This document shows, piece by piece, positions 5,611 to 60,113 of a DNA stretch of 64,000 nucleotides. The DNA lies in the sequence record KY608965.1, one strand, 5' to 3'. A program made the position numbers and the translations under genes. Each line of letters opens with the position of its first letter. The stretch's first letter is position 1. The notes beneath the pieces are model-generated. The model searched no databases. It worked only from the letters and a program-made list of their open reading frames with translations, and was not told where the DNA came from. The stretch is from Escherichia phage phiEC1.

Positions 5611-6269
5611 TGACTGTACTTAATACAAAGGCGGGAGTTATTTCCCGTCATGCTGATTTTTTGAATTACAGAAAAAATCCAGCTCAAATTGATGTTTTAA
5701 ACAACCAAGCTGTAGGTTCCGTGACTATTTCTCAGTTAGCTCGTGGTTTTTATGATGCTAACGTAGAATCTGCAATAAATGATGTCCATAATATGGCACG
5801 AGCTGATATTGGTACTGTTGTAACAAACACTTCAGGCATATCGCCTGAAGGTACAGCACAAGTTGATTATTGGACTTTTTCTGGTGATGTTCTCGACGAT
5901 ACTTTGGCCCCTGGAACGCCGGTCGTTATTAACGTATTTGGACTTGCTGTTAAAGCAACAATTGGTATGACTGATAACGAATTAACTGCACAAGTTCGTA
6001 TAGCTTTACAAGAAGCCATTGCTAATCAAATCGCTATTTCTTCTTATAAAGACCATCCATCCGAAGGTAATAAACTTCAGGTGACATATTTAGATAACCA
6101 ACGTCATGTGTTGCCAACATATGCTTCGTTTGGTGTAACAATTTCGCAAGAAATTTTGTCTGAAGCAAAATCCGGATACGGAACATGGAATTTATTGGGT
6201 GCCCAAACGGTTACTCTTGATAACCATGATACTCCTACCGTTTTCTACCACTTTGTGAGAGCCTCATGA
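5610..6269 (+). CDS. 11: Baseplate wedge protein gp11 (short-tail-fibre attachment)
   Basis: ATG at 5610 overlaps gp10 stop (TAATG); 219 aa as in T4 gp11; track ORF from 5592 starts at a non-ATG codon. Confidence 0.88.
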
Positions 6270-7849
6270 GTAATAACAATACATACCAACACGTTTCAAA
6301 CGAATCCATTTACGTTGAATTCGACCCTACGGGGACGAATTTTCCAGATACAGTCACTAATGTCCAAGCCGCATTAGCTGCTATTTCTCCTTCAGGTGTT
6401 AATGGTGTACCGGAAGCAACAACTACTACACCAGGAATTATTCAAATAGCTACTCCACAAGAAGTTATTGATGGATTAGATAATAATAAAGCTGTTACTC
6501 CAGCATCACTGAATGCTCGTCTACAATATCCTAATGCAACCGAAACTCAATATGGCTTAACTCGTTATGCTACTGAAGATGAAGCAGTAACCGGAACTAT
6601 TGACGATGCATCAATTACTCCGCTTAAATTGAATCAAAAAATAGACAATGTATTTCAGACAAAAGTGTCAACAGAAGCAACAAATGGTGTAATTAAAATT
6701 TCAACTTCTGCTGCCGCATTAGCTGGTTCTGATGATACAACGGCAATGACTCCGTTAAAAACGCAACAATTAGCAATTAAACTTATTTCACAAATTGCTC
6801 CAAATAATAGTGACGCCACCGAATCTATTACAGGTGTTGTTCGTTTGGCTACAGTTGCTCAAGCACAACAAGGCACCCTGCGTGAAGGCTATGCAATTTC
6901 GCCTTATACCTTTATGAATTCAGTAGCATCAGAAACTAATAAAGGCGTCGTTAAACTAGGGACACAGACTGAAGTAAATAGTAACAACTCTTCAGTTGTA
7001 GTGACCGGCGCAACATTAAACGGGCGTGGGGCTACAACTTCTTTACGTGGAGTTGTTCGTTTAACTACACAAGCGGGTAGCCAATCAGGTGGTGATGGTT
7101 CTTCTGCTCTTGCTTGGAATGCTGATGTTATCCACCAACGAGGCGGACAAACTATTAATGGCACACTTCGCATTAATAATACGTTGACGGTTGGTTCTGG
7201 CGGCGCTAATATAACTGGTAATGTCAATATGACAGGTGGTTATATTCAAGGCAATCGTATTGTGACTCAAAATGAATTAGACCGAATTCTTCCAGTTGGC
7301 GCTATTACAATGTGGGCTGCAGATAGTTTACCGAGTTCCGACTGGCGCTTCTGTCACGGTGGGACTGTTTCTGCTTCAGAATGTCCAGTATATGCTTCCA
7401 GAATTGGGACACGATATGGTGGTAGTTCTTCTAACCCAGGCTTGCCTGATATGCGTGGATTATTTGTTCGTGGCTCAGGTCGTGGCTCTCACTTAACAAA
7501 TCCAAATGTTAATGGTAATGACCAGTTTGGTAAGCCTAGATTAGGTGTAGGTTGTACTGGTGGATATGTTGGTGAAGTACAGAAACAACAGATGTCTTAT
7601 CATAAACACGCTGGCGGATTTGGTGAGCATGATGATTCTGGAGCATTCGGTAATACCCGTAGATCAAATTTTGTTGGTACACGTAAAGGACTTGACTGGG
7701 ATAACCGTTCATACTTCACCAATGACGGATATGAAATTGACCCGGCATCACAACGAAATTCCAAATATACATTAAATCGTCCTGAATTAATTGGAAATGA
7801 AACACGCCCATGGAACATTTCTTTAAACTATATCATTAAGGTAAAATAA
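6266..7849 (+). CDS. 12: Short tail fibre protein gp12
   Basis: 527 aa as in T4 gp12; ATGA overlap with gp11; repeat-rich fibre sequence. Confidence 0.92.
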
Positions 7850-19775: not shown

Positions 19776-20422
19776 TGAATAAACCCGAGTTACTTATTGA
19801 AACTTGGGGTCAACCCGGTGAGATTATTGATGGCGTTCCAATGTTGGAATCTCATGATGGAAAAGATTCTGGCTTAAAACCAGGGCTTTATATAGAAGGT
19901 ATTTTTCTTCAGGCAGAGGTTGTTAACCGAAATAAACGTTTATATCCTAAACGCGTTTTGGAAAAAGCAGTAAGTGACTATATTAAAGAACAAGTCGCAA
20001 CCAAACAAGCCCTTGGAGAATTAAACCATCCACCTCGTGCAAATGTTGACCCTATGCAAGCCGCTATCATTATTGAAGATATGTGGTGGAAAGGAAACGA
20101 TGTATATGGACGTGCTAGAATTATTGAAGGCGACCATGGTCCCGGCGATAAATTAGCTGCTAATATACGAGCTGGTTGGATTCCGGGTGTTTCCTCTCGT
20201 GGTCTTGGTTCTTTAACCGACACCAATAAAGGGTACCGTATCGTGAACGAAGGATTTAAATTAACCGTCGGCGTAGATGCCGTATGGGGACCTTCTGCTC
20301 CAGATGCTTGGGTTACTCCTAAACAAATATCAGAATCAGAATCAGAAAATTCGGTGGAAATCACCAAAAACAGTGCTGACGAAGCATTTAAAGCTCTCGC
20401 AGAGAGTTTAAAAGCATTATAA
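19775..20422 (+). CDS. 21: Prohead core scaffold protease gp21
   Basis: 215 aa (T4 gp21 is 212 aa); synteny upstream of 22 and 23. Confidence 0.9.
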   Translation: MNKPELLIETWGQPGEIIDGVPMLESHDGKDSGLKPGLYIEGIFLQAEVVNRNKRLYPKRVLEKAVSDYIKEQVATKQALGELNHPPRANVDPMQAAIIIEDMWWKGNDVYGRARIIEGDHGPGDKLAANIRAGWIPGVSSRGLGSLTDTNKGYRIVNEGFKLTVGVDAVWGPSAPDAWVTPKQISESESENSVEITKNSADEAFKALAESLKAL

Positions 20423-21285: not shown

Positions 21286-22854
21286 ATGACTACTATCAAA
21301 ACTAAAGCTCAGCTCGTAGACAAATGGAAAGAACTGCTGGAAGGTGAAGGCCTGCCGGAAATCGCTAATAGCAAGCAGGCTATTATCGCTAAAATCTTCG
21401 AAAACCAGGAAAAAGATTTCGAAGTATCCCCTGAATATAAAGACGAGAAAATCGCTCAGGCATTTGGTTCTTTCTTGACCGAAGCTGAAATTGGTGGTGA
21501 CCACGGTTATAATGCTCAGAATATTGCAGCAGGTCAAACCTCTGGTGCAGTAACCCAAATTGGGCCGGCAGTTATGGGTATGGTTCGTCGTGCTATTCCT
21601 AATCTGATCGCTTTTGATATTTGTGGTGTTCAGCCTATGAACAGCCCGACCGGTCAGGTATTTGCTCTCCGTGCAGTATATGGTAAAGACCCTATCGCTG
21701 CTGGCGCTAAAGAAGCTTTCCATCCGATGTATGCCCCAGACGCGATGTTCTCTGGTCAGGGTGCTGCTAAGAAATTCCCAGCTCTGGCTGCTGACACTAC
21801 TACTGTTGTAGGTGATATCTATACTCACTTCTTCCAAGAAACTGGTACTGTATATCTGCAAGCTTCTGCTATCGTAACACTTGATTCTGGTGCAACTGAT
21901 GCAGCTAAATTAGATGCAGAAGTTAAGAAACAAATGGAAGCTGGTGCACTGGTAGAAATCGCTGAAGGTATGGCTACTTCTATCGCTGAACTCCAGGAAG
22001 GTTTCAACGGTTCTACCGATAACCCATGGAATGAAATGGGCTTCCGTATCGATAAACAAGTTATCGAAGCTAAATCTCGCCAGCTGAAAGCTGCTTACTC
22101 TATCGAATTAGCACAAGACCTCCGTGCAGTACACGGTATGGATGCTGATGCTGAACTGAGCGGTATTCTGGCTACAGAAATTATGCTAGAAATCAACCGT
22201 GAAGTTGTTGATTGGATTAACTACTCTGCACAGGTTGGTAAATCTGGTATGACCCTGACTCCGGGTTCTAAAGCTGGCGTATTTGACTTCCAGGACCCGA
22301 TTGATATCCGTGGTGCTCGTTGGGCCGGTGAAAGCTTTAAATCTCTGTTGTTCCAGATTGATAAAGAAGCAGTTGAAATTGCTCGTCAAACCGGCCGTGG
22401 TGAAGGTAACTTCATTATCGCTTCCCGTAACGTAGTTAACGTACTGGCTTCAGTTGATACTGGTATTTCTTACGCTGCACAGGGCCTGGCTTCTGGTTTT
22501 AATACCGACACTACTAAATCTGTGTTTGCCGGTGTACTTGGTGGTAAATACCGCGTATACATCGACCAGTATGCTAAACAGGATTACTTCACCGTTGGTT
22601 ACAAAGGCGCTAACGAAATGGATGCAGGTATTTACTATGCTCCTTACGTTGCACTTACCCCACTGCGTGGTTCCGATCCTAAGAACTTCCAGCCGGTAAT
22701 GGGCTTTAAAACTCGTTACGGTATCGGTGTTAACCCGTTTGCTGAAAGTTCCCTGCAGGCTCCAGGTGCTCGCATCCAGTCCGGTATGCCGTCTATCCTG
22801 AACAGCCTTGGTAAGAACGCTTACTTCCGCCGTGTATATGTAAAAGGCATCTAA
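21286..22854 (+). CDS. 23: Major capsid protein gp23
   Basis: 522 aa (T4 gp23 is 521 aa); high codon bias; strong terminator downstream. Confidence 0.97.
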   Translation: MTTIKTKAQLVDKWKELLEGEGLPEIANSKQAIIAKIFENQEKDFEVSPEYKDEKIAQAFGSFLTEAEIGGDHGYNAQNIAAGQTSGAVTQIGPAVMGMVRRAIPNLIAFDICGVQPMNSPTGQVFALRAVYGKDPIAAGAKEAFHPMYAPDAMFSGQGAAKKFPALAADTTTVVGDIYTHFFQETGTVYLQASAIVTLDSGATDAAKLDAEVKKQMEAGALVEIAEGMATSIAELQEGFNGSTDNPWNEMGFRIDKQVIEAKSRQLKAAYSIELAQDLRAVHGMDADAELSGILATEIMLEINREVVDWINYSAQVGKSGMTLTPGSKAGVFDFQDPIDIRGARWAGESFKSLLFQIDKEAVEIARQTGRGEGNFIIASRNVVNVLASVDTGISYAAQGLASGFNTDTTKSVFAGVLGGKYRVYIDQYAKQDYFTVGYKGANEMDAGIYYAPYVALTPLRGSDPKNFQPVMGFKTRYGIGVNPFAESSLQAPGARIQSGMPSILNSLGKNAYFRRVYVKGI

Positions 22855-22878
22855 TCTTAATTGATTAAATCTTATTTT

Positions 22879-22904
22879 GGGAGACTTCGGTCTCCCATTT
22901 TTGG
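22879..22904 (+). terminator. Rho-independent terminator after gene 23
   Basis: GGGAGAC-TTCG-GTCTCCC followed by ATTTTTGG. Confidence 0.85.
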
Positions 22905-22906
22905 TT

Positions 22907-23176
22907 TTATTTCTGTGCAATTTCGATGTAAGTTTTCAAAATATTTTGCCAATTAGGCATACCTTCTTGGACATATGCCGGAGAACCGTCTTTGTTTTTG
23001 AATGATGCAAGTTTATCAGTGGCCCAATAACCTTTAGCTCGAGCTTCAGAATCAACTTTCATCCATACTTTGTTGAAGGCATTACCATTAACTTTTGCAC
23101 CATATTTTTCTACTAACTTAACTGCTTCAGCTTCCAGAACTTTTAAAGTATCTCGTAAGAAACGTGCTTTAGTCAT
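22907..23176 (-). CDS. Hypothetical early protein (orphan) encoded antisense within the capsid gene block
   Basis: 89-aa ORF with ATG, GAGGAG Shine-Dalgarno and its own early-type promoter (GTTTAC-N18-TACTAT) at 23207..23236. Confidence 0.6.
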   Translation of the reverse strand: MTKARFLRDTLKVLEAEAVKLVEKYGAKVNGNAFNKVWMKVDSEARAKGYWATDKLASFKNKDGSPAYVQEGMPNWQNILKTYIEIAQK

Positions 23177-23206
23177 TTTGTTTACTCCTCTGTAGTTGAT
23201 AAGTCT

Positions 23207-23236
23207 ATAGTATCACATACCAAATACGTTGTAAAC
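23207..23236 (-). promoter_or_regulatory. Early promoter for orphan ORF 22907..23176
   Basis: On - strand GTTTAC-N18-(TGTGA)TACTAT; back-to-back with late promoter of gene 24. Confidence 0.6.
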
Positions 23237-23242
23237 AATCTT

Positions 23243-23250
23243 TATAAATA
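23243..23250 (+). promoter_or_regulatory. Late promoter (TATAAATA) for gene 24
   Basis: Exact TATAAATA 26 nt upstream of the gp24 ATG. Confidence 0.75.
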
Positions 23251-23276: not shown

Positions 23277-24560
23277 ATGAGTAAAATCCAAAAATTATTG
23301 CGTGAATCTACAACGTCTACTAGCAACTCAATCGGTCGCCCAAATCTCGTTGCTTTGACTCGCGCTACGACTAAATTAATATATTCTGACATTGTGGCAA
23401 CACAAAGAACTAATCAACCTGTTGCTGCTTTTTATGGTATTAAATATCTTAACCCAGACAACGAATTAACATTTAAAACTGGTGCTACTTATGCAGGCGA
23501 AGCTGGATATGTAGACCGAGAAAAAATTACTGAGCTCACAGAAGAATCAAAAGTCACACTAAATAAAGGTGATTTTTTCAAATATAATAATATCGTCTAT
23601 AAAGTGTTAGAAGATACGCCGTTTGCAGATATTCAGGAAAGTGATCTAGAATTAGCTCTTCAGATTGCGGTCGTTCATTTAAAGGTACGGCTATTTTCAG
23701 ATGCAGCGGTAACAAGCAAATTTGAAAGCTCTGGTAGCGAAATTTCTGATGCAAGATTCCAGATTAATAAATGGCAAACTTCAGTCAAATCTCGTAAACT
23801 TAAAACCGGCCTCACGGTTGAATTAGCGCAAGATTTAGAAGCGAATGGATTTGATGCCCCTAACTTCTTAGAAGATTTGCTTGCTACTGAAATGGCTGAT
23901 GAAATTAATAAAGATATTCTTCAGTCTTTAATTACTGTATCTAAACGTTATAAAGTTACTGGAATTACTGACACCGGATTTATTGACTTGAGTTATGCAT
24001 CTGCTCCGGAAGCAGGTCGTTCGTTATATCGAATGGTGTGTGAAATGGTTTCGCATATCCAAAAAGAGTCAACTTATACTGCAACGTTTTGCGTAGCTTC
24101 AGCTCGTGCAGCTGCTATTCTTGCTGCTTCTGGTTGGTTAAAACATAAGCCGGAAGATGATAAGTATCTTTCACAAAATGCTTATGGATTCTTGGCAAAT
24201 GGATTACCTCTTTACTGCGATACCAACAGTCCGTTAGATTATGTTATTGTGGGTGTTGTAGAAAATATCGGCGAAAAAGAGATTGTAGGGTCCATCTTTT
24301 ATGCTCCATACACTGAAGGAATGGATTTAGACGACCCGGAACATGTCGGTGCATTTAAAGTTGTAGTTGATCCGGAAAGCTTACAACCGTCTATAGGTTT
24401 ATTGGTTAGATATGCTTTATCAGCAAATCCTTACACAGTAGCAAAAGATGAAAAAGAAGCGAGAGTAATTGATGGCGGGGACATGGATAAAATGGCAGGA
24501 CGTTCAGACTTGTCTGTTTTACTCGGTGTTAAATTGCCTAAAATTATTATAGATGAATAA
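23277..24560 (+). CDS. 24: Capsid vertex protein gp24
   Basis: 427 aa as in T4 gp24; late promoter 23243..23250. Confidence 0.95.
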   Translation: MSKIQKLLRESTTSTSNSIGRPNLVALTRATTKLIYSDIVATQRTNQPVAAFYGIKYLNPDNELTFKTGATYAGEAGYVDREKITELTEESKVTLNKGDFFKYNNIVYKVLEDTPFADIQESDLELALQIAVVHLKVRLFSDAAVTSKFESSGSEISDARFQINKWQTSVKSRKLKTGLTVELAQDLEANGFDAPNFLEDLLATEMADEINKDILQSLITVSKRYKVTGITDTGFIDLSYASAPEAGRSLYRMVCEMVSHIQKESTYTATFCVASARAAAILAASGWLKHKPEDDKYLSQNAYGFLANGLPLYCDTNSPLDYVIVGVVENIGEKEIVGSIFYAPYTEGMDLDDPEHVGAFKVVVDPESLQPSIGLLVRYALSANPYTVAKDEKEARVIDGGDMDKMAGRSDLSVLLGVKLPKIIIDE

Positions 24561-24563
24561 ACG

Positions 24564-24590
24564 AAAAAGGGACCGTAAGGTCCCTTTTTT
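24564..24590. terminator. Bidirectional terminator between gene 24 (+) and rnlB (-)
   Basis: AAAAA-GGGACC-GTAA-GGTCCC-TTTTTT. Confidence 0.85.
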
Positions 24591-60106: not shown

Positions 60107-60113
60107 TGTATAC
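60084..60113 (-). promoter_or_regulatory. Early promoter for ORF 59799..60047
   Basis: On - strand GTATAC-N18-(GGTGTGA)TACTAT; -10 bracketed by a 10-bp perfect inverted repeat. Confidence 0.6.

Follow-up and report, generated by a model that had tools for sequence, protein, structure and literature searches.

In phage T4, the slot between the capsid genes 23 and 24 holds segD, a homing endonuclease gene for which, according to a 2010 review, no specific promoter was identifiable and very low expression was assumed (PMC2988022). Time-resolved T4 omics data describe segD as "early RNA, middle protein," with SegD peptides measured by mass spectrometry from the first time points (PMC9697503 supplements), in a scheme in which the "early" class is generous and takes in 215 genes (PMC9697503). 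In RB69, Nolan et al. (2006) predicted an early promoter (Pe:109605, − strand, score 29.9) and a late promoter (Pl:109573) at the sites equivalent to those described below, and the equivalent of the gene 23 terminator is listed as a + strand-only terminator, "23-><-RB69ORF188c" (PMC1524935 supplement).

We analyzed the corresponding interval in a 64,000-nucleotide stretch of phage DNA (referred to from here on as the window). Judged by its sequence, the window is from a Mosigvirus (RB69-like) phage; the locus is 99.4-99.9% identical to that of many Mosigvirus (RB69-like, T4-type) phages, including FP43, mogra, PhAPEC2, and APCEc01. The best explanation for what lies between genes 23 and 24, to which we give a probability of roughly three in four, is a cassette with a small accessory gene of T4-type phages, composed of a strong sigma-70 early promoter and an 89-codon gene, which lie in the early-strand orientation in a swappable g23/g24 slot between these late genes. 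The features of the locus are as follows.

21286..22854, + strand: gene 23, major capsid protein, 522 aa (ORF list; annotation in the 99.4%-identical PhAPEC2 record)
22878..22897, both strands: gene 23 terminator hairpin, common to both converging genes (fold and terminator scan)
22907..23176, − strand: 89-aa ORF, 10.1 kDa, pI 9.6 (ATG at 23176..23174, stop codon TAA at 22909..22907)
23190..23185, − strand: Shine-Dalgarno GAGGAG, 8 nt 5' of the ATG of the 89-aa ORF (read from sequence)
23217..23207, − strand: extended −10 element TGTGATACTAT, with TGA (TGn) at 23215..23213 and TACTAT at 23212..23207
23236..23231, − strand: −35 element GTTTAC(A), T4-type early (sequence, matrix, relatives)
23243..23250, + strand: gene 24 late promoter TATAAATA (read from sequence)
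23277..24560, + strand: gene 24, capsid vertex protein, 427 aa (ORF list; PhAPEC2 annotation)
After gene 24, − strand: rnlB

The 89-aa protein and its family

The sequence-only reading had placed an 89-aa ORF with an ATG start codon and a GAGGAG Shine-Dalgarno sequence on the − strand between genes 23 and 24, and all of these coordinates match ours. Its description of the gene as an orphan is wrong, because the protein belongs to PHROG 6003 and is found in 239 phage records and in the same slot in three genera. A homology search with the peptide, which that reading had proposed as a check, gave a whole-length match to the PHROG 6003 profile (E 2.1e-45, with residues 1-89 aligned to positions 1-90 of 90), and the 89-aa ORF is, by sequence comparison, a member of the PHROG 6003/RB69ORF188c-189c family. 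The 239 phage records were detected by tblastn with the 89-aa protein and fall into 120 at 80% identity or more and 119 at less than 60%. More than 100 GenBank phage records list the ORF as a hypothetical protein, and PhAPEC2_170, which is 100% identical to it, is annotated as "similar to RB69ORF188c." Both the g23/g24 slot and the antisense orientation are kept in PhAPEC2 (Mosigvirus), VR20 (Gaprivervirus), and WG01 and 04086 (Dhakavirus), with the copies of VR20, WG01, and 04086 showing 30-38% amino acid identity to the window protein, and also in two metagenomic T4-type phages (61-70% identity). Further, the relatives carry GGAG or GAGGAG at the equivalent position before the ORF.

Pairs of ORFs with 62-70% amino acid identity gave pS values of 0.70-0.80 (which are saturated) against pN values of 0.21-0.24, and dN/dS in unsaturated pairs was 0.07-0.14. 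By its substitution pattern, the 89-aa ORF is under purifying selection, and we conclude that it is a real protein-coding gene. In a 20-sequence family alignment that includes the members with only 30-38% identity, residues M1, K3, F6, G31, N32, N35, and Q70 are invariant, and a G-N-x-x-N motif located between the first two helices is among them. The sequence-only reading had held that loss or disruption of the ORF in close relatives would speak against it; we found the ORF intact at 95% identity or more in about 117 of the 120 Mosigvirus-type records and broken in RB69 and mogra. The RB69 copy (6292..6532 of L006, − strand) is shifted in frame by +1 near codon 20, where substitutions also cluster, and by −1 near codon 70; the result is the two annotated fragments ORF188c and ORF189c, and the RB69 promoter is intact. 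In phage mogra, the copy is split. Because of the frameshifted RB69 copy and the split mogra copy, the ORF appears to be dispensable in at least some laboratory lineages.

Family members also occur beyond the T4-type phages, namely in Acinetobacter phage ABPH49 (Vequintavirinae; 3495..3761 of L010) and in two further records (4001..4264 of L012 and 4001..4255 of L013), where they are located in runs of small unnamed ORFs or after a GpJ-like tail gene of another phage type. The occurrence of the family outside T4-type phages points to horizontal spread and fits a mobile accessory gene. We note that one metagenomic family member, P0006 (90 aa; 3001..3273 of L007), has been named "NADPH-dependent curcumin reductase CurA" by one source, which is a clear mis-annotation.

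The 89-aa protein, as computed from its sequence, is small, basic, and soluble. With 20 family members as input, AlphaFold2 gave a model with a pLDDT of 93.8 and a pTM of 0.80, which supersedes an earlier AlphaFold run with 5 close sequences (pLDDT 68). In the predicted fold, two long helices are followed by a beta hairpin and then by a helix at the C-terminus. A Foldseek search of the model against the PDB gave no match, and against BFVD it gave a member of the same family only; a PDB sequence-profile search returned nothing at E <0.3, and NCBIfam and PADLOC returned no match. In Pfam, no family scored over threshold (the sole hit, DUF4859, was seen in 3 of 20 members and reached 17.9 bits, where 22.6 is required), and neither a GIY-YIG nor an HNH nuclease domain was detected. 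A free-standing homing endonuclease (seg/mob) cassette was rejected because the protein has no nuclease domain and because LF82-1 encodes its SegD homologue separately, in a gene further downstream. Also rejected were the long repeat proteins retrieved by exhaustive HMMER searching, one cytochrome-b5-like (P0013) and one Ig-like (P0014), the scores of which are spurious sums over 5-6 repeats of ~30 residues. Residues 40-70 of the ORF show a short local likeness (WATDKLASFKNKDGSPAYVQEG) to the N-terminal strand region of the P0013 cytochrome-b5-like repeats; the match to P0013, a metagenomic protein, is a sum over five repeats and was judged spurious. A literature search on RB69ORF188c gave nothing usable.

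Based on the early promoter class, the small size, the patchy and mobile distribution, the dispensability in RB69, and the lack of an enzyme-like fold, we consider that the 89-aa protein is most likely a host-directed early accessory protein that takes part in host takeover or counter-defence by binding a partner. It would thus be a non-essential factor acting through a host macromolecule; should a role in host takeover or counter-defence prove true for the 10-kDa protein, the known factors of this kind would gain a new small fold.

The promoter and the stem-loop at the two ends of the ORF

From the letters of the locus, an early-type promoter had been proposed that stands back to back with the late promoter of gene 24, and it lies precisely where it had been placed. 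GTTTAC-N18-TACTAT is the same site as TTTACA-N17-TACTAT with TG, and only 6 nt separate the early −35 hexamer from the gene 24 late promoter TATAAATA. Transcription would start near 23200 (− strand), and the leader of the ORF transcript would be 24 nt long. As a generic hexamer scan (13 sites compared with 17.6 expected) does not by itself set this promoter apart from chance, we built a position weight matrix (PWM) from 10 other early-type promoters of the window, all on the − strand, and left the candidate out. The ORF promoter scored 39.4 bits with this matrix and ranked first in the whole 64 kb on both strands; in the window, nothing else exceeded ~12 bits except the training sites and two further early-type sites. 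The window's other early-type promoters, given by the first base of the −35 element, are the following.

26079, 38571, 44391, 45476, 45919, 49373, − strand: other early-type promoters
51499, 52904, 54087, 60113, 60537, 60981, − strand: other early-type promoters, continued (12 in all)

The sites at 60113 and 60537 were found by means of the matrix, having been missed by the pattern search. The consensus of these promoters is GTTTACA...(A/T)TGTGATACTAT...ATCAAC, all on the − strand, and the ORF promoter has this extended consensus, including the downstream ATCAAC. Directly upstream of its −35 element (about −40 to −60), the − strand reads GATATAGATTATTTATAAAGATT, an A/T-rich, UP-like sequence; on this strand, the block of the gene 24 late promoter may double as the UP element of the early promoter. 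A MotA-dependent middle promoter was rejected: the MotA box consensus is (a/t)(a/t)(a/t)TGCTTtA, centred at −30 (PMC1524935), and in its place the promoter has TTGTTTACAACG, which lacks TGCTT.

In eight diverged versions of the slot, the −35 and −10 elements are always 18 nt apart, with the spacer almost wholly changed. The slot promoters scored 41.7 bits in 04086, 35.7 in RB69, 35.7 in WG01, 29.8 in the metagenomic relative L007, 27.3 in L009, 24.9 in T4, and 22.2 in VR20. Since the promoter was already predicted in RB69 in 2006 and the gene is already annotated, the feature as such is known; as it stands, it adds another conserved hypothetical gene to the early genes of T4-type phages.

At the other end of the ORF, the sequence after the hairpin at 22878..22897 is TTTTTGGTTTT on the + strand and AAAAUAAGAUUU on the − strand. 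On the + strand, where a UUCG loop is followed by UUUUUGGUUUU, gene 23 ends in an intrinsic terminator. The stem also folds in the − strand RNA (−13.5 kcal/mol), but no U-tract comes after it, and the scan lists the hairpin as a + strand terminator only. This bears out the proposal that the gene 23 terminator is not a canonical intrinsic terminator in the − orientation. The − strand U-tract is also missing in RB69, PhAPEC2, L007, WG01, and T4. In VR20, the ORF is immediately followed by a two-way terminator (GGGACC..GGGTCCC, then UUUUUAUUU). The − strand stem-loop may serve as a 3' stabilising hairpin of the ORF mRNA. No RNA family came near threshold in Rfam between 22700 and 23400.

We note that the gap between gene 24 and rnlB contains a strong two-way terminator (24564..24589) with an 11-pair stem and T-runs on both strands, whereas the one between gene 23 and the 89-aa ORF is one-way. 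Further, a putative 156-codon ORF with a TTG start codon (22450..22920, − strand) starts inside the 89-aa gene in another frame and lies antisense to the 3' end of gene 23. It is a mechanical reading frame; if it were translated, the read-through RNA would be shielded from Rho.

One slot, four states

Comparison of the g23/g24 slot across relatives revealed four states.

State 1, empty: ~83 bp with the gene 23 terminator and TATAAATA only; T2 (462..546 of L014), about 470 Tequatrovirus records, Jiaodavirus KLB2 (458..540 of L015)
State 2, early promoter and ORF: the window, other Mosigvirus, VR20, WG01, L007, L009
State 3, early promoter, ORF, and SegD homologue: LF82-1 (tandem at 2886..3930 of L011), 04086 (tandem at 2386..3430 of L004)
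State 4, early promoter and segD: T4, PST

A PWM scan of the empty slots of T2 and KLB2 detected no early promoter (−4.4 and −0.4 bits), and the gene 24 late promoter TATAAATA is kept in all relatives compared, those with an empty slot included. The four slot states thus indicate that the early promoter comes and goes with the cargo and does not belong to the capsid-gene backbone. Further, the lack of an early promoter in empty slots and the two-way terminator of VR20 indicate that the promoter serves the cargo gene. One early promoter would thus drive a varying cargo, which is the ORF, the ORF and segD, or segD alone, and is gone when the slot is empty; in this respect, the g23/g24 gap is a clean example of a "plug-in" slot in an otherwise rigid capsid operon.

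In state 3, the early promoter is followed first by the ORF and then by the SegD-like gene, whose product matches T4 SegD at 57% identity (E 3e-86) and whose ATG is 3 nt beyond the ORF stop codon. The SegD-like endonuclease gene of 04086 is unannotated. LF82-1 matches the window exactly over the promoter and leader as far as the ribosome-binding site, after which a Dhakavirus-type ORF follows, and this switch point looks like a recombination joint. We also note that VR20 (1..2394 of L002), WG01 (1..2399 of L003), and metagenomic L007 (337..2901) contain tandem gene 24 paralogues (vertex proteins I and II); gene 24 is single copy in the window, unlike in Gaprivervirus, Dhakavirus, and the metagenomic relative L007.

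The sequence-only reading had pointed out that the occupant differs from that of T4, and this is indeed so, with an 89-aa ORF that has no nuclease motif in place of a 223-aa endonuclease. Upstream of T4 segD, we find TATTTATA-AAGTT-ATTTAC-N18-TATTAT with TGA before the −10 element (L005, NC_000866 101000-113000; 6254..6283, − strand; 24.9 bits), which points to a promoter specific to T4 segD. Contrary to the 2010 review (PMC2988022), this predicted promoter would agree with the T4 omics data, in which segD RNA is early and SegD protein is detected. We propose that segD exploited the same promoter slot, standing directly behind the ORF in some Dhakavirus-type phages and replacing it in T4. As T4 segD likewise occupies this slot in antisense and follows a homologous promoter, the antisense layout is not special to the window phage.

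What the cassette may do and how it compares with known systems

The favored accessory cassette would comprise a UP-like A/T block, the −35 element GTTTACA, TGn, the −10 element TACTAT, a 24-nt leader, a good ribosome-binding site, and the 89-codon gene. Right after infection, host RNA polymerase would fire from about 23200 on the − strand, and a 10-kDa basic protein would be made; the early timing of ORF expression is what the promoter class and the T4 data for the homologous slot lead us to expect. Transcripts that pass the stem-loop (22897..22878) may run partway antisense into gene 23 until Rho or RNases stop them. It is likely that some transcripts read into the 3' end of gene 23, and most likely this is incidental; the antisense run would be a by-product of converging genes and not the purpose of the promoter.

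If, instead, the antisense RNA were the purpose, early transcripts from about 23200 (− strand) would base-pair with the mRNA of gene 23 or run into late polymerases, so that capsid protein synthesis would be delayed or tuned, and the ORF would be a passenger or have a second function. The absence of a U-tract from the − strand stem-loop of the window phage, RB69, PhAPEC2, L007, WG01, and T4 would allow for this, and in the window and most relatives no sequence feature halts − strand transcription at the ORF end, which makes an effect on gene 23 at the RNA level possible. The neighboring early-strand rnlB unit, by contrast, ends at a strong − strand terminator (24589..24564) before gene 24, and the next − strand terminator-like sites beyond the ORF (21794..21778 and 20368..20350) are weak or far away. 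Classical T4 work described early RNA complementary to late messages ("anti-late RNA"), which we count in favor of such a role; our literature search on T4 anti-late RNA gave nothing usable. However, the cargo-less slots of T2, most Tequatrovirus, and Jiaodavirus do without the promoter, and capsid expression in T4-type phages is thus apparently independent of it. The two-way terminator of VR20 sits directly behind the ORF, and conservation of promoter and read-through independently of the cargo was not seen, given the empty slots of T2 and KLB2 and the VR20 terminator. Further, early promoters are off minutes before late mRNA appears (PMC2988021), so that early antisense RNA and gene 23 mRNA should overlap little in time, and untranslated antisense RNA is a typical target of Rho (Rho polarity: PMC2988021). 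Selection on the ORF at the protein level, finally, is clear. A conserved antisense role at gene 23 is therefore not supported, as the comparative evidence goes against it, and we regard antisense timing as quite unlikely to be the purpose of the promoter. We are equally skeptical of a dual job, in which the protein would disable a host factor or defence while the early RNA would cover the 3' part of gene 23 in antisense and serve there for timing or clean-up. This would apply to phages that lack a two-way terminator, where, for example, double-stranded RNA could be offered to RNase III against premature capsid mRNA, an idea we hold to be similarly improbable; the antisense half would be its novel part.

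Two further explanations concern the gene itself. It could be a decaying relic, that is, the remnant of an old insertion without present function that persists because its deletion would put the gene 23 terminator or the gene 24 promoter at risk. The RB69 copy with its +1 and −1 frameshifts (annotated as ORF188c and ORF189c), the split mogra copy, and the many relatives that do without the cassette would agree with decay, but about 117 of 120 Mosigvirus-type records keep the ORF intact at 95% identity or more, pS greatly exceeds pN (dN/dS 0.07-0.15), seven residues are invariant even in members 30-38% identical, the family alignment gives a confidently predicted fold, and the two promoter hexamers have been retained on either side of a diverged spacer. 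We therefore consider a relic very unlikely. The location between genes 23 and 24, together with a very weak PHROG match to an "internal virion protein" family (E 0.09), could also be taken to mean that the protein, like its neighbors, acts in head assembly or is a virion component. Yet the ORF is on the opposite strand behind an early sigma-70 promoter, T2 and T4 build the same head without it, its relatives in other phages lie among small early-type ORFs and not among head genes, and, in PhAPEC2, the flanking head proteins are noted as "structural virion protein" and the ORF is not. No TATAAATA faces the ORF, and on this ground a late or structural gene was rejected; a place for the protein in the capsid module is thus extremely improbable.

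Overall, the early accessory cassette can be compared with four described systems. It shares with the T4 early ("uber") promoters (Hinton 2010, PMC2988021) a UP-like A/T block, the −35 element GTTTAC(A), TGn, and a TAnnnT-type −10 element; the window site, a predicted promoter, differs in that the sequence at its UP position is also the late promoter of the diverging gene 24. The likeness to T4 antisense transcription (Belin et al.) is that early-strand transcription runs opposite another gene through a converging layout, and the difference is that the window promoter is tied to a cargo gene. T4 segD, a GIY-YIG homing endonuclease gene, has the same slot, the same antisense orientation, and the same back-to-back arrangement, TATTTATA-N5/6-(A/G)TTTAC-N18-TAnTAT, but the cargo is unrelated (a 223-aa endonuclease compared with an 89-aa protein), and both occur in tandem in LF82-1 and 04086. 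The counterpart in RB69, RB69ORF188c/189c with Pe:109605 (PMC1524935), is the same gene in the same slot with the same promoter and a + strand-only terminator; RB69 and the window are identical from the late-promoter block through the −10 element, with three substitutions in the leader, and, whereas the RB69 frame is broken by two frameshifts, the window and most Mosigvirus records retain an intact gene of 89 aa.
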